Below, one piece after another: positions 1 to 59,085 of a stretch of 64,000 nucleotides of DNA. Below the pieces are notes generated by a model. It made no database searches. It was not told the DNA's origin and saw only the letters and a list, made by a program, of their open reading frames with translations. The stretch comes from Escherichia coli (GTDB taxonomy: Bacteria; Pseudomonadota; Gammaproteobacteria; Enterobacterales; Enterobacteriaceae): NCBI RefSeq assembly GCF_022846255.1, contig NZ_AP025682.1; one strand, given 5' to 3'. How positions within the stretch are numbered: position 1 is the first letter of the stretch; each line of letters begins with the position of its first letter. A program made the position numbers and the translations under genes.

Positions 1-245
1 ATAAACGGTTCCAGTCCTTTGAGCTTACGCATGATCAGCGTGCGGTGTGCCCACGGGCAGGCGAGTGAAACATAGAGATAATAACGATCTTTCTCTGCGG
101 CAAAACCGCCTTTGCCAGTGGGGCCTGGCGCGCCATCGGCAGTGAGCCAGTTACGAAATGCGGAAGCTGAACGTTGAAATTTACCGCCGGTGGATTTGGT
201 ATCGTACCAGGTGTCATGCCAGACGCCGTCAATCAGTTGACCCAT
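1..245 (-). CDS. yqjG: Glutathionyl-hydroquinone reductase YqjG (Xi-class GST), N-terminal part only; gene runs off the window start
   Basis: Reverse-strand ATG at 245..243 translates MGQLIDGVWHDTWYDTKSTGGKFQRSASAFRNWLTADGAPG... and stays open to position 1. Absent from ORF track because truncated by the window edge. Confidence 0.85.
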   Translation of the reverse strand, partial: MGQLIDGVWHDTWYDTKSTGGKFQRSASAFRNWLTADGAPGPTGKGGFAAEKDRYYLYVSLACPWAHRTLIMRKLKGLEPF

Positions 246-314
246 TTTTCTATCCTCCAATAGCAAAAACGAGGAGCTTCCCCCTCGTTTTTTATCGTTA
301 AGTATAGCGCGTGC

Positions 315-707
315 TTACCACTTTTTATTCAGCAGGCGGTCGATGCTGAATGCGCCTGGACCGGTAATTGCCAGCAGCAGGAATCCGCCAGAAATAGTCA
401 GGTTTTTCATGAACATCAGCGAGTTGACGCCTTCAGCAAAGTTGCTGTGAAATAAAAATGCCGTCAGCAGCGTAAAGCCAGCAGTAAACAGGGCTGTGGT
501 ACGTGTCAGGAAACCGAACAGGATTGCCAGACCACCACCAAACTCAAGCAGAATCACCAGCGGCAGCATAAAGCCGGGGACGCCCATTGCTTCCATATAT
601 TGTTGGGTACCCGCGTAGCCAGTAATTTTTCCCCAGCCTGCCGTAATAAACAGAATCGGCATTAAAATACGCGCTACCAGTACACCAACATCTTCTAATT
701 TTTTCAT
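315..707 (-). CDS. yqjF: DoxX-family inner membrane protein YqjF
   Basis: ORF 315..797; likely start is the internal ATG at 707 (MKKLEDVGVLVARILMPILF...), preceded by a GGAG-type RBS, giving about 130 aa with hydrophobic DoxX-like segments. Confidence 0.85.
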   Translation of the reverse strand: MKKLEDVGVLVARILMPILFITAGWGKITGYAGTQQYMEAMGVPGFMLPLVILLEFGGGLAILFGFLTRTTALFTAGFTLLTAFLFHSNFAEGVNSLMFMKNLTISGGFLLLAITGPGAFSIDRLLNKKW

Positions 708-893
708 CATACTCTCCACTGCGCCGCTCAGGCTGCTGATTGTTTTTTTGTGCAAGGGCGCGCTATTAGCGTCGTTGCTGTCGATGGAGAGAATCATAAA
801 CGTGACGAAGCGTGATTGTTAGCAAGGAAAACTGTCAAATATTTTCAAAAAATTTGAGGGATAAGGCCGGAATTTCTCCGGCCAGAGAGGAAG

Positions 894-1193
894 TTAACCG
901 CGAAGCTGTTGTTGCTTGAGGGTTGTTTTCACCAGACGCCAGGCGCTCCATACACCAAAACCGCGTCTGGCCCAGCGGACCAGCATATTAGGATGGCGAA
1001 TCGTCCAGATAGCCATCACGCTACTGCCAACCAGCGCCCAGGAGCGCAGACTCAACAGCATATTCCAGCGACGATCGTAAGCGCCTGTTGCCTCCAGCCA
1101 TTCACGACGAGTGGCGGAAAGATCCAGCCGTTGTTGCTGGATCTGGCTAAGCAGTTGCGCCTTACGTCGTTCACGTTCGACTTTACTGCTCAC
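894..1193 (-). CDS. yqjK: Small uncharacterised protein YqjK
   Basis: ORF 894..1295; recognised protein begins VSSKVERERRKAQLLSQIQQQ at a GTG (1193..1191). Overlaps the yqjE 3' end by 11 nt, suggesting translational coupling. Confidence 0.7.
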   Translation of the reverse strand: MSSKVERERRKAQLLSQIQQQRLDLSATRREWLEATGAYDRRWNMLLSLRSWALVGSSVMAIWTIRHPNMLVRWARRGFGVWSAWRLVKTTLKQQQLRG

Positions 1194-1587
1194 GGGACTC
1201 CTCCTCGAGCAGCTGCCGATCGTTTGCCAGCTCATGGCGCGTGTGGCGCAGCAACGTAGACTTACGCGATTTACGTAACGTCCAGATGCCGCCAATCAGT
1301 GCCAGTAGCAGCAACACCACGGTGGTGGCAATCATCGCATTCAGGCGATATTGCGGATCAACCGCCCAGATAACTAGCACCATCAGGCTCATAAGACCAA
1401 ATGCAGCGAAAAGCATCGTCAGGCCCAGCATCAGTAAAAGTTGAAAGAGATTCGCTTTTTCCTCTTCCAGCTCCACCACCGCCAGCCGCAGACGTGTCTC
1501 CACCATTTCAACCATGATGGAAACAATTCGCTGCCCGATGCCCAGAACGCTTTTACCGGGCCCTTGCGCGTGATGAGTGTCCGCCAT
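1183..1587 (-). CDS. yqjE: DUF1469 inner membrane protein YqjE
   Basis: ORF 1183..1656; recognised start MADTHHAQGPGKSVLGIGQRIV at internal ATG 1587; two hydrophobic helices. Confidence 0.85.
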   Translation of the reverse strand: MADTHHAQGPGKSVLGIGQRIVSIMVEMVETRLRLAVVELEEEKANLFQLLLMLGLTMLFAAFGLMSLMVLVIWAVDPQYRLNAMIATTVVLLLLALIGGIWTLRKSRKSTLLRHTRHELANDRQLLEEESREQ

Positions 1588-1589
1588 AA

Positions 1590-1895
1590 TTAACGACGCG
1601 ACAGCAGAACGCCGAGCACTACACCGATTGCTGCGCCAATGCCCACGCCCGTCCACGGATTTTCACGCACATACTCATCGGCACGCGCCGCCGCGACACG
1701 GGTTTGTTTGGCAATGGCATCACCGGTTTCACCCAGGCGATAACGGCTCTGTTTCAGTGCCTGCTCCGCTTTGCTACGAATCTTACTCAACTCTTCTTTT
1801 GACTTCTCGCCAGATGAGCTAAGCACCTCTTCCAGCGTATCGGAAAGGGATTTCAACTCAGCACGCAGATGTTCCGTAGTGTGTTCTTTCGACAT
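1590..1895 (-). CDS. yqjD: Ribosome-associated, membrane-anchored protein YqjD (ElaB/YgaM family)
   Basis: 101-aa ORF MSKEHTTEHLRAELKSLSDTLEEVL... with C-terminal TM anchor GVGIGAAIGVVLGVLLSRR; 2 nt from yqjE start. Confidence 0.9.
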   Translation of the reverse strand: MSKEHTTEHLRAELKSLSDTLEEVLSSSGEKSKEELSKIRSKAEQALKQSRYRLGETGDAIAKQTRVAAARADEYVRENPWTGVGIGAAIGVVLGVLLSRR

Positions 1896-1932
1896 AGTTT
1901 TCTCCAGGTGAGTAAGTAGTGACTATTGTGAG

Positions 1933-2301
1933 TTAGTAGTCGCGCGCTTTCAGCTTTTTCAGCTCTTCCTGCGCTTCTGCCAGTTTCCGTTCGCGTTTGG
2001 CAATCTTATCTGCATCGCCTTTTTGCTTCGCCTCGGCTAAATCTTGCTGGCGTTCCGCCACCTCATCTTTCTGCTTTGCGATTTTCTTCTGATGATCGGC
2101 ACGCAGCTGGCTATCTGAACAGTTGGCCCGGACTTCACTCAGGGCTTTATTCAGACCGTCAATACGATTCTGGTTTTGGTGTTTTTCGGCATAGCTGATC
2201 TCCTTAAGGATATTTTGCTCCTTTTCCTGACACAGGGTAGTGGCATAACTACCGGCACTAAGAGCAAAGAGAGAAACAGCTAAAGCGATGCGGTATTTCA
2301 T
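1933..2301 (-). CDS. yqjC: Periplasmic DUF1090 protein YqjC
   Basis: ORF 1933..2316; preferred start ATG 2301 (MKYRIALAVSLFALSAGSYA signal peptide) with GGAAGG RBS 7 nt upstream; lysine/glutamate-rich coiled-coil body. Confidence 0.85.
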   Translation of the reverse strand: MKYRIALAVSLFALSAGSYATTLCQEKEQNILKEISYAEKHQNQNRIDGLNKALSEVRANCSDSQLRADHQKKIAKQKDEVAERQQDLAEAKQKGDADKIAKRERKLAEAQEELKKLKARDY

Positions 2302-2447
2302 TCTTGAACCTTCCATTGTGATTCGGACCTATTACAAAGGAACGATTGTCCAGACAACGAAGCGGTAGTGTTAACCACCGCCTCATTAATCATAGACAGT
2401 TACGGTGAAATCACCAAAGTGAGTGATCTGTTTCGGATAACAGGAAG

Positions 2448-2831
2448 TTATCCGAAGCGATGAGAGTTATCCCGCAACCGGGTCAGCCACTGCATAGCCT
2501 GACTGTTATTGTCCTGCTGCGCAATGATGTAGCCATGGGGCAATGTTCTGTCGAGGACCGCTTTTGCGGCGGCGCTCTGGTCGCTGGAGTCAAAGGTAAT
2601 TAACAGAGTGTCGTTTTTGGGGGTGATACTTTTGAAAGGAATGCCGTGAGCGTCAAGGTGATGCCAGATTGAAAAACCGTCTGGCATCGTTGTCCCTTGA
2701 TGAACGGCACGAATCGCCAGCGTAGACTCTTGCTGGCGAACCGCGGACCAGGCCAGCAATAGTGTGCTGACCAGAAGTAAAACAGCGCCGGACCAGGCTA
2801 GCTGGCGAAGTGACATGCGAGGTATTTGCAT
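2448..2831 (-). CDS. mzrA: Modulator of EnvZ/OmpR, MzrA
   Basis: 127-aa ORF with N-terminal TM segment ([21 protein letters not shown]) and periplasmic domain; matches MzrA as recalled. Confidence 0.9.
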
Positions 2832-2834
2832 CCC

Positions 2835-3497
2835 TTACCCCCGATTTCCATATTTCTTTTTCCATAACACGACCAGAGAACCTGCCAGGCCAAACACCAG
2901 CAGCACCACCGGGAGCAGCATCAGGCATGACATCAGCTGGTCCTCGTACTTTAAAAATACCGGCGTTTTGCCGAGCATGTAACCCAGAGTTGTCAGGATC
3001 AACACCCACAGCAGACCACTCATCCAGTTGAAGAACTGAAAGCGCGCGTTATTCAGCCCTGATAACCCGGCAATCGTCGGCAGCAGTGTTCTGACAAACG
3101 CAATAAAGCGACCAATTAACAGCGCCGATAAACCGTGTTTATGAAAAAGATGGTGTGCGCGTTGATGATAATGCGCGGGTAAATGAGATAGCCAGTTTTG
3201 TACTGTGCGGGTATTGCCCAGCCATCGCCCCTGAATATAGCTGACCCAGCAACCGAGGCTGGCGGCAACGGTCAGCAGCAGAATCGTTTGCGGATAGCCC
3301 ATCGCGCCTTTCGCAATCAATACGCCGACCAACACCAGTAAACTGTCGCCCGGTAAAAAGGCCGCCGGAAGCAAGCCGTTTTCAAGGAACAAAATTACAA
3401 ACAAGACAAAATACAACATGCCAATCATCGACGGATTGGCCAGGGTTTCAAAATCCTGCGCCCACAGGGCTTGCAGCAATTGGGTCAAAAGTTCCAT
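2835..3497 (-). CDS. yqjA: DedA-family inner membrane protein YqjA
   Basis: 220-aa [27 protein letters not shown]...; multi-pass membrane protein, DedA/SNARE-associated family. Confidence 0.92.
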
Positions 3498-3841
3498 TCA
3501 TTATTCCTGGTGAATCGGTTAACGCCACGCTGGTTTTAAAAGATGCACTACCGCAATGTTATTGCTGTTTTGGTATGTTTTGCGGGTTTGATACATCAAC
3601 ACAGCCTGAACTATTCCCTGTTAAATCGTGAGATAAGAAAGCATTCAAAAGCATAAATTCAAATTGAATCTAATTGTAACAAAGGTCAACGTTGTTCGTT
3701 ATCAAAATTACATGTCCGTAGAGTCTGATTTTGCTGATTGCAGGGGAGGGTGGCGAGAGGATTTACACAGGCTGACACTTTATACTTTTCGCTTACCGAC
3801 GAAGCAAACAGGCGCATTGCAGCGCCTGTCGGATGGAAATT

Positions 3842-4618
3842 TCATTTGCTGCCGCTGGTGGCCGTATCGAGATGCACTACCGGGTTTTCTGCGAACAGAT
3901 AGCGGTCGGCATTGAACTCGAAATCGTCGCTGGTTTCGTTAAATAACATGATTTTGGTGTTTTCCAGATGCTGCCACATTGCCAGCTTAGCAGCATGAGG
4001 ATCTTTGCGAATTAACGCCTTGAGGATCTGATCGTGGTCATCGCACCAGTTATCGACAGTACGGGCATCAATGTGTTCGTGTAGTTTTTTCCAGTACGGG
4101 TTATGGCTACGTTGGGTCCACATTTTTTCCACGATAGCCGCCAGGGCGGAGTTCTGCGTCGCCAGAGCTACCTGAATGTGGAACTGCAAATCCCACTCGG
4201 AATCACGGAAGCATTGTTCGCCGCGCGCCTGCTCCTGGATGGCCATCAATTTCATGATGTCCTGTTTCGTTACCTGAGTTGCCGCGAACTCGGCAATATT
4301 ACTTTCGATGAGCTGGCGAGCCTGGAGCAACTCAAACGGACCGTAATTGGCGAATTCCATATTATTGTCCGCCGCCTGCTGATGACGCGGCTGGTTGGAA
4401 ACCACGTGAATACCTGAACCTTTACGCACCTCCACATAGCCTTCAACTTCCAGCATGATGATGGCTTCACGAACCACGGTGCGGCTGACGTTTTTTTCAT
4501 CGGCAATAAAGCGCTCAGCAGGCAGTTTATCACCCACCAGATAGACGCCCTGTTCGATGCGCTCTTTCAGATCAGCGGCAAGTTGTTGATACAAACGGCG
4601 TGGTTCAGTGATTTCCAT
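3842..4618 (-). CDS. exuR: GntR/FadR-family repressor of hexuronate genes, ExuR
   Basis: ORF 3842..4633; recognised start [26 protein letters not shown] at ATG 4618; N-terminal GntR HTH, FadR-like C-terminal domain. Confidence 0.93.
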
Positions 4619-47204: not shown

Positions 47205-47365
47205 GATGCTGACGCGTCTTATCAGATTGCGTAGGCCGGATAAGGCGTTCACGCCGCATCCGGCAATCAACGCCTGATGCGACGCTCGCGCGTCTTATCA
47301 GGCCTACAACTGTCGTTGACATGTAGCCGGATAAGACGCTTACGTCGCATCCGGCAAAATATCCA
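47205..47365. repeat. REP/BIME cluster (at least 3 palindromic units) between uppP and cca
   Basis: Repeated units GCCGGATAAGGCGTTCACGCCGCATCCGGC, GCGTCTTATCAGGCCTAC and GCCGGATAAGACGCTTACGTCGCATCCGGC in alternating orientation. Confidence 0.75.
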
Positions 47366-55223: not shown

Positions 55224-55252
55224 TTGACGCTGTTGTTTTTTCAACCTAAAGT
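55224..55252 (+). promoter_or_regulatory. Near-consensus sigma70 promoter (TTGACG-17-TAAAGT) driving the Sib antisense sRNA
   Basis: -35 TTGACG at 55224..55229, 17-nt spacer, -10 TAAAGT at 55247..55252; predicted TSS about 55259, 40 nt downstream of the ibs stop on the opposite strand. Confidence 0.5.
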
Positions 55253-55258
55253 AAAGGA

Positions 55259-55400
55259 ACAAGGGTAAGGGAGGATTTCTCCCCCCTCTGATGAGTTGTT
55301 AGTAAGTCGGGAAACTTAACAGTAACAACACAACCAGTATGATGACGAACTTCATCATAACCCTTTCCTTCTATAAGGCCCCTTCCTCGGGAGGGGCTTT
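55259..55400 (+). ncRNA. Sib-family antisense sRNA (type I antitoxin; SibD/SibE-like), ends approximate
   Basis: Transcript from the promoter above would cover the whole ibs ORF on the opposite strand and end at a GC-rich hairpin (CCCCTTCC-TC-GGGAGGGG, about 55380..55397) followed by CTTTCCCGTTT; about 140 nt, the size I recall for Sib RNAs. Confidence 0.55.
55299..55358 (-). CDS. Ibs-family type I toxin, 19-aa hydrophobic peptide MMKFVIILVVLLLLSFPTY
   Basis: ATGATGAAGTTCGTCATCATACTGGTTGTGTTGTTACTGTTAAGTTTCCCGACTTACTAA on the reverse strand with RBS GGAAAGGG 5 nt upstream; matches the Ibs consensus (MMK.VIIL..LLL.SF..Y). Below the ORF-track size cut-off. Confidence 0.8.
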   Translation of the reverse strand: MMKFVIILVVLLLLSFPTY

Positions 55401-58839: not shown

Positions 58840-59085
58840 GCTTATTCTCAGGGCGGGGCGAAATTCCCCACCGGCGGTAAATCAACTCAGTTGAAAGCCC
58901 GCGAGCGCTTTGGGTATGAACTCAAAGGACAGCAGATCCGGTGTAATTCCGGGGCCGACGGTTAGAGTCCGGATGGGAGAGAGTAACGATTCTGTCGGGC
59001 ATGGACCCGCTCACGTTATTTTGGCTATATGCCGCCACTCCTAAGACTGCCCTGATTCTGGTAACCATAATTTTAGTGAGGTTTT
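58840..59085 (+). promoter_or_regulatory. FMN riboswitch (RFN element) in ribB leader
   Basis: Conserved RFN blocks visible: GGGCGGGGCGAAATTCCCCACCGGCGGTAAA ... CCGACGGTTAGAGTCCGGATGGGAGAGAGTAACG, followed by an expression platform reaching the ribB SD (GAGG at about 59078). Confidence 0.8.

Follow-up and report, generated by a model that had tools for sequence, protein, structure and literature searches.

The window analysed here, a 64,000-nucleotide stretch of the Escherichia coli chromosome, carries the previously described yqjCDEK stationary-phase operon. The conserved, ancient coupled unit within it is yqjD-yqjE-yqjK rather than the four-gene set, and yqjC is a later enterobacterial addition. 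An operon with a coupled D-E-K core, in which YqjE and YqjK act with YqjD, explains the whole best (probability roughly 70%). The operon itself, its two sigma-S promoters and rpoS dependence, its CsrA sites, the role of YqjD, and the synteny of yqjE- and yqjK-like genes with DUF883 genes are already known. Added here are the D-E-K core, the junction anatomy, the origin of the overlap, the lack of phage support for the holin name and a null AlphaFold2 result.

The four genes are as follows.
1933-2301, minus strand: yqjC, 122 aa; DUF1090 (Pfam PF06476, 118.8 bits against a cut-off of 24.4).
1590-1895, minus strand: yqjD, 101 aa; N-terminal DUF883 helical domain (PF05957, 49.5 bits against 25.4, residues 8-60) and C-terminal glycine-zipper transmembrane anchor (PF19029, 57 bits against 27, residues 72-101).
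1183-1587, minus strand: yqjE, 134 aa; Phage_holin_3_6 (PF07332, 75.3 bits against 28.4).
894-1193, minus strand: yqjK, 99 aa, GTG start at 1193-1191; YqjK domain (PF13997, 87.5 bits against 28.1, residues 14-86).

All four products pass the Pfam gathering thresholds (DUF1090, DUF883 with DUF883_C, Phage_holin_3_6 and YqjK). Gene coordinates are identical to RefSeq/PGAP annotation of strain D8 (100% identical) and of K-12 MG1655 (b3097-b3100). From the open reading frame list and the sequence, the junctions are +37 nt (yqjC to yqjD), +2 nt (yqjD to yqjE, TAA-TT-ATG) and -11 nt (yqjE/yqjK, 1183-1193, GTGAGCAGTAA). The tight packing and GTG start described in the first-pass annotation are thus exact to the base and agree with RefSeq. 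The region is found in 5,422 of 5,426 complete E. coli genomes, and all four genes are present and co-oriented at the loci of 81/81 Enterobacteriaceae species, which argues that the four frames are real genes and not chance. The expected yqjE-yqjK synteny was likewise found, the pair being adjacent and co-oriented in all 81 species. An Rfam scan of positions 1-4000 detected no known RNA families. Envelope genes encoded near yqjCDEK in the window include the DedA-family gene yqjA, mzrA and the DoxX gene yqjF.

The DNA is about 98% identical to that of K-12 (33 differences in 1,601 aligned bases). The K-12 operon (PMC10746276) has the same genes, order, junctions, GTG, promoters and CsrA sites BS1, BS2 and BS4. 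It differs at BS3, which is GGA in K-12 and GAA here (YqjC E118K), and in the frame above the yqjK GTG, which is closed by TAG in K-12 and open to an ATG here. By nucleotide alignment, all four differences within yqjD fall at third codon positions and are seemingly synonymous.

Two sigma-S promoters have been reported, one upstream of yqjC and one within yqjC for yqjDEK (PMC10746276, Pourciau et al., mBio 2023). CsrA represses yqjCDEK through GGA motifs in the ribosome-binding regions of yqjC and yqjD, and a transcription start upstream of yqjE/yqjK is known from global mapping (both PMC10746276). Osmotic shock induces the operon in E. coli (10.1101/2025.05.13.653802). The published promoter and CsrA positions map exactly onto the window sequence.
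2388..2396, minus strand: extended -10 (TCTATGATT) of the yqjC(DEK) sigma-S promoter, placed by our own reading; sequence as in K-12.
2383, minus strand: A, transcription start of the yqjC(DEK) promoter, -82 from the yqjC ATG.
2312..2316, minus strand: CsrA site BS1 (AUGGA), which overlaps the Shine-Dalgarno region of yqjC; the A at -15 (2316) fits the A(-15)G BS1 mutation of PMC10746276.
1996..2010, minus strand: internal yqjDEK sigma-S promoter in yqjC, with the -10-like GATAAGATT at 2010-2002.
2000-1996, minus strand: CCAAA start region of the internal yqjDEK promoter, -105 to -101 from the yqjD ATG; start published (PMC10746276), coordinates placed on the sequence.
1969-1967, minus strand: GGA of CsrA site BS2, 61 nt to BS4, in agreement with PMC10746276.
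1951-1949, minus strand: CsrA site BS3, 43 nt to BS4, in agreement with PMC10746276; GAA here.
1903..1905, minus strand: CsrA site BS4 (GGA) in the yqjD Shine-Dalgarno CTGGAGA, from the sequence and PMC10746276.

A core Shine-Dalgarno (SD) tetramer precedes yqjD in 81/81 species. The BS3 change is an A at 1950 (alignment with K-12, column 511) and is the same substitution that produces YqjC E118K. The exact window 60-mer at this allele occurs in 456 of 5,422 E. coli genomes, a minority allele.

Two features lie at the junctions downstream of yqjD.
1585..1592, minus strand: yqjD/yqjE junction TAA-TT-ATG, with a 2-nt spacer and no SD before yqjE.
1198..1206, minus strand: yqjK SD GAGGAGGAG, 4 nt upstream of the GTG and written in Glu codons of the yqjE C-terminus.

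The yqjD-to-yqjE gap is +2 in 58 of the Enterobacteriaceae species, +1 in 22 and -1 in one, and ranges from -1 to +14 nt in 11 distant loci. An SD before yqjE was found in none of the 81 species, where even the most stable anti-SD duplex does not go below -1.7 kcal/mol. Because yqjE lacks an SD and starts 1-2 nt past the yqjD stop, its translation would depend almost entirely on ribosomes that have just terminated at the end of yqjD. The yqjE-to-yqjK junction lies between -11 and +2 nt in 81/81 species, most commonly as a 4-nt overlap (51/81). The SD of yqjK lies within yqjE codons in 80/81 species, with a median duplex of -9.3 kcal/mol. Glutamate is encoded by GAG and GAA in a ratio of 118:25 in the last 11 yqjE codons and 1160:1715 elsewhere, a seven-fold GAG enrichment (odds ratio) in counts that ignore shared ancestry. 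This codon bias argues that the SD inside yqjE is maintained. The GTG or ATG of yqjK, abutting or overlapping the yqjE stop, would use this strong SD in the last yqjE Glu codons.

In the junction alignment, the overlap classes of -11 and -8 carry a 1-nt gap, and a 1-nt deletion shifts the yqjE stop two codons downstream. The 11-nt overlap of Escherichia derives from the usual 4-nt GTGA/ATGA overlap by such a deletion; it is lineage-specific and not special. The gene pairs trpE-trpD and trpB-trpA are classical coupled pairs with ATGA/GTGA 4-nt overlaps. As in those pairs, the upstream stop overlaps or abuts the downstream start, and the SD of the second gene is embedded in the coding region of the first; the Escherichia yqjE/yqjK overlap differs in being 11 nt rather than 4 nt, lengthened by the 1-nt deletion. 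The yqjD/yqjE junction is of the SD-less termination-reinitiation type, whereas the classical pairs are SD-assisted, and coupling at yqjCDEK is read from sequence. Both the 11-nt overlap and the GTG are real but ordinary, since bacterial genes commonly overlap at their starts or begin with GTG.

A predicted structure also covers the yqjK start.
1185..1213, minus strand: predicted 8-bp RNA hairpin, GCUGCUCG...UGAGCAGU, with the yqjK SD in the loop and a 3' arm made of the UG of GUG and the yqjE end.

The 100-nt segment folded around it has a minimum free energy (MFE) of -41.9 kcal/mol (z = -3.72), and z ranges from -2.1 to -2.9 in Escherichia loci. A family-wide conserved hairpin masking the yqjK start was rejected, as the median z is -0.09, paired cells number 73.0% against 73.3% in shuffled alignments, and no covariation was found. 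It is possible that the predicted hairpin serves as a coupling element in Escherichia only. Its lack of conservation beyond Escherichia counts against coupling by this route.

Translational coupling had been thought likely in the first-pass annotation, and comparative anatomy points strongly the same way, with tight D-to-E and E-to-K junctions in 81/81 species and a matching SD pattern. Junctions are tight or overlapping in most distant loci as well. Coupling may not be the sole route to YqjE and YqjK expression, because a transcription start has been reported upstream of yqjE/yqjK.

Distant loci separate the core from yqjC. A related-locus search with a 10-sequence YqjE alignment returned only Enterobacteriaceae. 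The distant sample is therefore small and comprises 12 YqjE loci of 28-42% identity that were picked singly, mostly on metagenomic contigs. Immediately before yqjE there is a DUF883 gene in 11/12, and immediately after it a small third gene in 11/12. The third gene is YqjK-like in 9/12 by Pfam or by our own iterative profile, four of these being Pfam matches. The matches to our profile include an uncalled open reading frame (L086, 34 bits) and the third gene of L097 (24.6 bits), a locus left out of profile building. The third gene often escapes Pfam detection. In one lineage (L091/L092) a rhomboid intramembrane protease stands in place of YqjK. A DoxX gene adjoins the D-E pair in L091, a metagenomic locus at 28% identity.

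A DUF1090 gene was found beside the D-E-K genes in 0/12 of these loci. The yqjC-to-yqjD gap is variable (12-85 nt) even where yqjC is present. The YqjC N-terminus (MKYRIALAVSLFALSAGSYA) reads as signal-peptide-like, and YqjC would be a periplasmic DUF1090 protein encoded by a lineage-specific first gene of the operon. Of the proposed compact four-gene cluster, the junctions hold; a uniform unit does not, given that yqjC is an enterobacterial add-on with a variable gap and an internal promoter.

The Pseudomonas aeruginosa operon PA3040-PA3041-PA3042 is similar: homologues of YqjD (DUF883) and YqjE are encoded next to a small third gene, the spacing is below 15 bp, and induction occurs in stationary phase and envelope stress (PMC11302039). 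It differs in being under AlgU rather than RpoS/CsrA control and in not being toxic when over-expressed (PMC11302039). Deletion of the yqjD or yqjE homologue gave no phenotype, and deletion of PA3042, which has no recognised domain, did (PMC11302039). Given where it lies, and because other Pfam-negative third genes match the YqjK profile, PA3042 is probably a divergent YqjK.

YqjD has a single hydrophobic segment (residues 80-100). The K-12 protein is C-tail-anchored, binds ribosomes and inhibits translation as a ribosome-hibernation factor (Njenga et al., bioRxiv 10.1101/2024.08.16.608256). It forms dimers, binds to the tunnel exit of the 50S subunit and renders ribosomes silent at the inner membrane (10.1101/2024.08.16.608256). 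Binding of stationary-phase ribosomes at the membrane is credited to Yoshida 2012 as cited in PMC11302039. The earlier description of YqjD as an ElaB-family protein that tethers such ribosomes to the membrane is therefore upheld by the Pfam DUF883 match and by both sources, the second as it is cited. As in the YqjD/ElaB/YgaM family, YqjD carries the two DUF883 domains, with a glycine-zipper anchor at its C-terminus. ElaB and YgaM are encoded by stand-alone genes without E or K partners, whereas yqjD has both partners. Adjacency of yqjD to yqjE-like and yqjK-like genes has been reported, and YqjD was therefore termed the family archetype (10.1101/2024.08.16.608256).

YqjE is predicted to be an inner-membrane protein in which an amphipathic helix at the N-terminus is followed by a transmembrane hairpin of two helices and then by a charged tail. 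Its hydrophobic segments span residues 45-78 and 80-105, and the hairpin is modelled by AlphaFold2 with pLDDT of about 86-91. YqjK is very basic (pI 11.95), and its most hydrophobic 19-residue window scores 1.35. The description of the two as small membrane or basic proteins fits this two-helix YqjE and basic YqjK. Over-production of YqjE arrests growth and increases persistence by a factor of 100 to 400, and the ordinary membrane proteins PntA and FocA were also toxic when over-produced in the same screen (PMC4738310). Over-production of YqjD alone stops growth as well (PMC10746276).

As published, two sigma-S promoters serve the operon in stationary phase and under osmotic stress, and CsrA represses it in growing cells. 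In the proposed mechanism, the two-helix membrane hairpin YqjE would be made alongside YqjD, and so would YqjK, in which a weakly hydrophobic segment comes after a basic helix; the amounts of both would be set by YqjD translation. Both would act with YqjD in the membrane, where their most likely role is to modulate how it assembles or works, or to limit its toxicity. A need for balanced co-production fits the growth arrest caused by YqjD or YqjE over-production alone (PMC10746276; PMC4738310). Against the mechanism, YqjE and YqjK are not needed for basic ribosome binding, because ElaB and YgaM bind ribosomes without adjacent E or K (10.1101/2024.08.16.608256). The lack of a deletion phenotype for the P. 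aeruginosa YqjD and YqjE homologues, and of toxicity on over-expression there, also counts against it (PMC11302039).

The small envelope-anchored complex proposed in the first-pass annotation is suggested by co-translation and synteny. Predicted YqjE/YqjK complexes are mentioned in PMC10746276 (its reference 68). AlphaFold2 runs on linker-fused paired alignments gave pTM of 0.28 for D-E-K and 0.33 for E-K and no support for a complex; the test was weak, as it used a linker and 31-32 sequences, most of them enterobacterial, and gave no contact read-out. The YqjD anchor has pLDDT below 50 in the fused models.

Three other readings were weighed against the coupled core. In the least credible, the overlap and GTG are annotation artefacts and yqjK starts elsewhere or is no gene. 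An in-frame ATG at 1235, 14 codons above the GTG with no stop between, leaves the frame open in this strain, the Pfam family YqjK is functionally uncharacterised, and YqjK hydrophobicity peaks at only 1.35. However, the same ATG, the sole upstream in-frame ATG in K-12, is followed there directly by TAG, and no SD precedes it here. The start codon keeps a fixed homologous position in 81 species, with GTG (44), ATG (35) and TTG (2) interchanging at one site, and the SD and protein are conserved with it. The Pfam domain begins at residue 14, no other start codon lies between the GTG and Met-44, and YqjK-like genes follow yqjE in distant lineages. ATG 1235 was rejected as the yqjK start, the proposed GTG stands, and the artefact reading, with hardly any chance of being right, is effectively refuted.

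A phage origin fares little better. YqjE, as a holin-like pore-former or a toxin, would then depolarise the membrane and induce dormancy, with YqjK or YqjD as antagonist, in a domesticated phage lysis or toxin-antitoxin-like cassette. The Phage_holin_3_6 match (75.3 bits), the RefSeq name "phage holin family protein", the small size with two transmembrane helices, and the growth arrest and persistence on over-production (PMC4738310) all favour it, although the toxicity of PntA and FocA makes over-production a non-specific signal (PMC4738310). None of the four cluster proteins matches any of 38,880 PHROG families. A tblastn search of 50,697 phage records gave only two matches, both mislabelled bacterial fragments. 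There is no endolysin or spanin nearby, and yqjE is a core, single-copy gene, syntenic in 5,422/5,426 E. coli genomes and all sampled Enterobacteriaceae. YqjE thus shares with PF07332 holins ("putative actinobacterial holin-X") the family match and the small two-helix build, and differs from phage holins in its core chromosomal position outside any phage context or lysis cassette. The family name is a bioinformatic label, and of the effects expected of a holin only growth arrest on over-production is on record (PMC4738310). With no PHROG match, true phage homologue or lysis cassette, a phage or holin origin was rejected and is very improbable. The third reading, unlikely but the most serious competitor, holds that YqjE and YqjK have nothing to do with ribosomes. 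The triad would be a general envelope or membrane stress module in which YqjE and YqjK stabilise or remodel the inner membrane under osmotic or stationary-phase stress, ribosome binding by YqjD would be a side or separate activity, and co-translation would merely ensure joint delivery to the membrane. In P. aeruginosa, PA3040-3042 belong to the AlgU envelope-stress regulon, stationary phase and D-cycloserine both induce them, and the biofilm, tobramycin and growth phenotypes map to the third gene, not the YqjD homologue (PMC11302039). Induction by osmotic shock in E. coli (10.1101/2025.05.13.653802), the envelope genes yqjA, mzrA and yqjF in the window and the recurrence of DoxX at L091 point the same way. 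Against this, ribosome binding and translation inhibition by YqjD are biochemically shown (10.1101/2024.08.16.608256), and in all lineages sampled YqjE synthesis is tied to translation of YqjD by the SD-less D/E junction, a sign of a shared task. The literature searched contained no membrane phenotype for yqjE or yqjK mutants of E. coli.

A narrower form of the coupled-core reading, in which YqjE and YqjK act with YqjD, makes them dedicated membrane regulators of YqjD. They would be made only with YqjD and would act on its glycine-zipper anchor, setting the dimerisation needed for ribosome inactivation or release at regrowth, and the fast-evolving third gene would include PA3042, alone in its triad in having deletion phenotypes. 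We regard this form as speculative and rather improbable. If it is true, the rhomboid replacing YqjK in L091/L092 hints at a third component that acts inside the membrane, on the anchor helix.

The remaining value of the locus lies in two y-ome proteins, YqjE and YqjK, which accompany YqjD from the enteric bacteria out to lineages with as little as 28% identity. The junction anatomy provides a clean experimental handle, and yqjD stop-codon mutants are predicted to abolish YqjE. Polar and stoichiometric effects on YqjE and YqjK should be considered in YqjD over-expression and deletion studies. The product name "phage holin" is misleading for YqjE and merits correction.

A stem-loop follows the last gene.
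865..883, minus strand: stem-loop GGCCGGA-GAAAU-UCCGGCC, 11 nt past the yqjK stop; MFE -15 kcal/mol, z = -2.9.

This is probably the 3' end of the operon, either a terminator or an RNA-stabilising hairpin. A consensus terminator scan made no call at 865..883 because the T-run is not adjacent. Relative to K-12, the stem is kept and the loop is changed.

The yqjCDEK cluster is an ordinary, well-annotated stress operon. Bases 800–2400 of the window have 100% identity to E. coli strain D8 and other strains, and the region was found in 5,422 of 5,426 complete E. coli genomes. The ORF list and sequence give four genes, each with matches above Pfam thresholds, followed by a stem-loop:

1933–2301, minus strand: yqjC, DUF1090
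1590–1895, minus strand: yqjD, DUF883 and DUF883_C glycine zipper
1183–1587, minus strand: yqjE, Phage_holin_3_6
894–1193, minus strand: yqjK, YqjK family
865–883, minus strand: stem-loop (−15 kcal/mol, z = −2.9) with a 7-bp GC-rich stem, 11 nt past the yqjK stop

Genes yqjC and yqjD are separated by 37 nt and yqjD and yqjE by 2 nt (TAA-TT-ATG), and yqjE overlaps yqjK by 11 nt (GTGAGCAGTAA). The first-pass annotation had given this gene order, these junctions and a GTG start for yqjK, and was exact, as ORFs, junctions, Pfam matches and the RefSeq coordinates of strain D8 and K-12 (b3097–b3100) agree. Its interpretation is largely right but not new: a full-text search showed that the operon, its regulation and the role of YqjD are already published. 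The DoxX gene yqjF lies downstream, and mzrA, the DedA-family gene yqjA and exuR lie upstream. Between yqjA and exuR, directly upstream of yqjA, is an 84-nt annotated gene with a 27-aa product (~3519–3602; L001:5720–5803 and L002:3669–3752 in the reference loci), named yqiM in K-12 and "hypothetical protein" in D8. The stem of the 865–883 stem-loop is the same in K-12, with loop GAAAU here and GCCAU there. The 13-nt distance to the T-run kept the terminator scan from calling it.

Pourciau et al. (mBio 2023, PMC10746276) located two sigma-S-dependent starts: one lies at −82 of yqjC, and the other, from a promoter within yqjC, lies at −101 to −105 of yqjD and yields a yqjDEK transcript. The CsrA sites they defined number four, with BS1 at the yqjC Shine-Dalgarno sequence (SD), BS2 and BS3 in the last part of yqjC, and BS4 at the yqjD SD. 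The published positions map exactly onto the window:

2383, minus strand: yqjC transcription start (A), below TCTATGATT at 2396–2388
2000–1996, minus strand: second start region (CCAAA), for yqjDEK
2314–2312, 1969–1967, 1951–1949 and 1905–1903, minus strand: GGA positions of the CsrA-site motifs

BS3 (1950, minus strand; in yqjC, 55 nt before the yqjD ATG) reads GAA here versus GGA in K-12, and the change also converts YqjC Glu118 to Lys. Since a GGA-to-AGA mutation of BS3 increased yqjD expression (PMC10746276), the window strain may be partly derepressed for yqjD. The window's exact 60-mer occurs in 456 of 5,422 E. coli genomes; among the records listed, all 11 non-exact ones are one base apart from it in the aligned stretch.

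A genome scan with the YqjE alignment gave 80 species-level loci, all Enterobacteriaceae, and K-12 brought the set to 81. The four genes share one strand and yqjE-yqjK synteny is kept in all 81.

Junction lengths in 81 loci (negative values are overlaps, in nt)
yqjC to yqjD: 12 to 85, variable
yqjD to yqjE: +2 in 58, +1 in 22, −1 in 1
yqjE to yqjK: −4 in 51, −1 in 12, −11 in 9, −8 in 6, +2 in 3

Among these loci the 11-nt overlap occurs only in Escherichia, the Citrobacter amalonaticus/sedlakii group and Intestinirhabdus. In the junction alignment yqjK always starts at the same place. Loci of the −11 and −8 classes have lost 1 nt between SD and start; the ancestral stop, the TGA in GTGA, is then no longer in frame, and YqjE runs on for a few more residues. 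On this alignment the length of the overlap is thus an incidental by-product and not a designed feature.

The yqjK start is GTG at 1193–1191, with the Pfam domain beginning at residue 14; from the GTG to Met-44 the frame offers no alternative start codon. An SD, GAGGAGGAG (1206–1198), stops 4 nt short of it. At the homologous position the 81 loci have GTG (44), ATG (35) or TTG (2). An in-frame ATG lies 14 codons earlier (1233–1235, minus strand) with an open frame between; no SD precedes it, and in K-12 ATG-AGT-TAG closes the upstream frame at the same place. A mis-annotated start or overlap is effectively excluded by the conserved start position in the 81 loci and by the K-12 TAG after an upstream ATG that has no SD; comparison across loci indicates that both GTG start and overlap are genuine.

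All 81 species lack an SD before yqjE, where the best anti-SD duplex is never stronger than −1.7 kcal/mol. A core SD tetramer is present before yqjD in all 81 and before yqjK in 80 (median duplex −9.3 kcal/mol). The yqjK SD is encoded by the final Glu codons of yqjE, where GAG:GAA is 118:25 versus 1160:1715 elsewhere in the four genes (odds ratio 7.0, Fisher p = 9e-24, ignoring shared ancestry of the species). This pattern is the apparent signature of two kinds of coupling, termination-reinitiation for yqjE and an SD inside the upstream gene for yqjK. Comparative anatomy (tight junctions, no yqjE SD, and a yqjK SD within yqjE) strongly supports the earlier proposal that yqjE and yqjK are translationally coupled to yqjD. 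A predicted 8-bp RNA hairpin (1213–1185) encloses the yqjK SD in E. coli, with the start codon's UG base-paired (z = −3.7 for its 100-nt window). A conserved hairpin was rejected: across 81 species the median z is −0.09 and covariation shows no excess (paired cells 73.0% versus 73.3% in column shuffles). It may aid coupling in Escherichia.

Exhaustive searching without a profile turned up 359 YqjE relatives, counted at the 50%-identity-cluster level, and contigs of 12 representatives (YqjE identity 28–42%) were inspected. A DUF883 gene lies directly upstream of the yqjE homologue in 11 of 12 (gaps −1 to +14 nt), a small gene lies directly downstream in 11 of 12, mostly overlapping, and none has DUF1090.

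Third gene in the distant loci (L-numbers denote contigs)
L093, L100: YqjK by Pfam (precomputed); L093 59.2 bits in our scan
L083, L089: 26.5 and 27.5 bits, slightly under the Pfam threshold of 28.1
L086: uncalled ORF, 34 bits against the enterobacterial YqjK profile built here
L099, L090: weak first-round matches to that profile
L097: 24.6 bits, second round, with L097 left out of profile building
L096: 11.5 bits, second round
L094: 61-aa product, no family assigned
L091 (and sibling contig L092): Rhomboid-family gene, 4-nt overlap with yqjE
L098: contig ends before the gene

Because distant loci keep the DUF883 and third genes and none has DUF1090, the ancient unit, judged by gene content, is yqjD-yqjE-yqjK, with yqjC added later. 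Domain databases often miss YqjK because it diverges fast, which probably explains why PA3042 was reported with "no recognised domains" (PMC11302039). In L091:1605–2258 and L092:953–1033 (metagenomic, YqjE 28% identity) a gene for a Rhomboid-family intramembrane protease (PF01694) stands where yqjK would be, and a DoxX gene just upstream of the DUF883 gene recalls yqjF beside yqjK in E. coli. In L086 no DUF883 gene lies upstream; the yqjE homologue overlaps at its end with the missed YqjK-like ORF, and the next gene fuses a CsbD general-stress domain to a DUF883_C anchor (L086:2898–3200 and L086:3227–3475). This looks like a variant where another stress domain shares the same glycine-zipper anchor. 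L100 alone has a long yqjE-yqjK gap (80 nt), crossed by an other-frame ORF (L100:2332–2480, Halomonas-type contig; 17–24 bits against YqjK profiles) for which a frameshift, a remnant and similarity due to low complexity are candidate explanations.

What YqjE and YqjK do is the remaining question, and the literature already poses it. YqjE is neutral in pI, with two transmembrane helices; in YqjK (pI 11.95) the N-terminal helix is basic and conserved, and the middle segment is weakly hydrophobic. The name "phage holin family protein" is without contextual support, as none of the four proteins matches a PHROG family and no true phage homologue of YqjE turned up among 50,697 phage records. With YqjE as query, tblastn matched two of these records: OR845630.1, an unannotated fragment of 1.9 kb that bears the name Escherichia phage ECO95 1-6-1, and AGRM01000002.1, a Salmonella enterica contig of 691 kb placed among the phages. 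Both look like bacterial DNA, and a holin or toxin reading of YqjE can effectively be set aside. Over-produced YqjE causes growth arrest and more persistence (PMC4738310).

YqjD, ElaB and YgaM are C-tail-anchored inhibitors of translation that bind 50S at the tunnel exit, an activity requiring the N-terminus and dimerisation, and yqjE-like and yqjK-like genes are conserved beside DUF883 genes across the whole family (Njenga et al., bioRxiv 10.1101/2024.08.16.608256). Osmotic shock induces the operon (10.1101/2025.05.13.653802). As published, the operon is transcribed by sigma-S and repressed by CsrA, with YqjD as a membrane-anchored ribosome silencer; from comparative anatomy, yqjE translation would depend on ribosomes terminating at yqjD and yqjK would initiate from a selected SD inside yqjE. 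We give this operon and coupling description a probability of about 95%. YqjE and YqjK may act with YqjD in the inner membrane, where they would likely modulate its assembly or temper its toxicity. Such a direct physical or functional partnership is tentative, at somewhat less than even odds. AlphaFold2 models from paired linker-fused alignments (31–32 mostly close sequences, without contact read-out) gave pTM 0.28 for YqjD-YqjE-YqjK and 0.33 for YqjE-YqjK, with pLDDT 86–91 for the YqjE transmembrane hairpin and <50 for the YqjD anchor; these values speak neither for nor against the small envelope-anchored complex proposed in the first-pass annotation. The chief competing reading gives YqjE and YqjK a role in envelope stress, independent of ribosomes, and is favoured by the envelope-related neighbour genes and by Pseudomonas data. 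In P. aeruginosa the homologous triad operon PA3040–3042 is AlgU-controlled (PMC11302039), unlike the sigma-S and CsrA control in E. coli.

Other RNA elements in the window are naRNA4 (47234–47304, plus strand), a Sib antitoxin RNA (55224–55373, plus strand) and an FMN riboswitch (58840–58988, plus strand). A tRNA with a CAT anticodon (34818–34893, minus strand) was typed Met by ARAGORN; by its E. coli position it may be ileX, a lysidine-modified tRNA-Ile.
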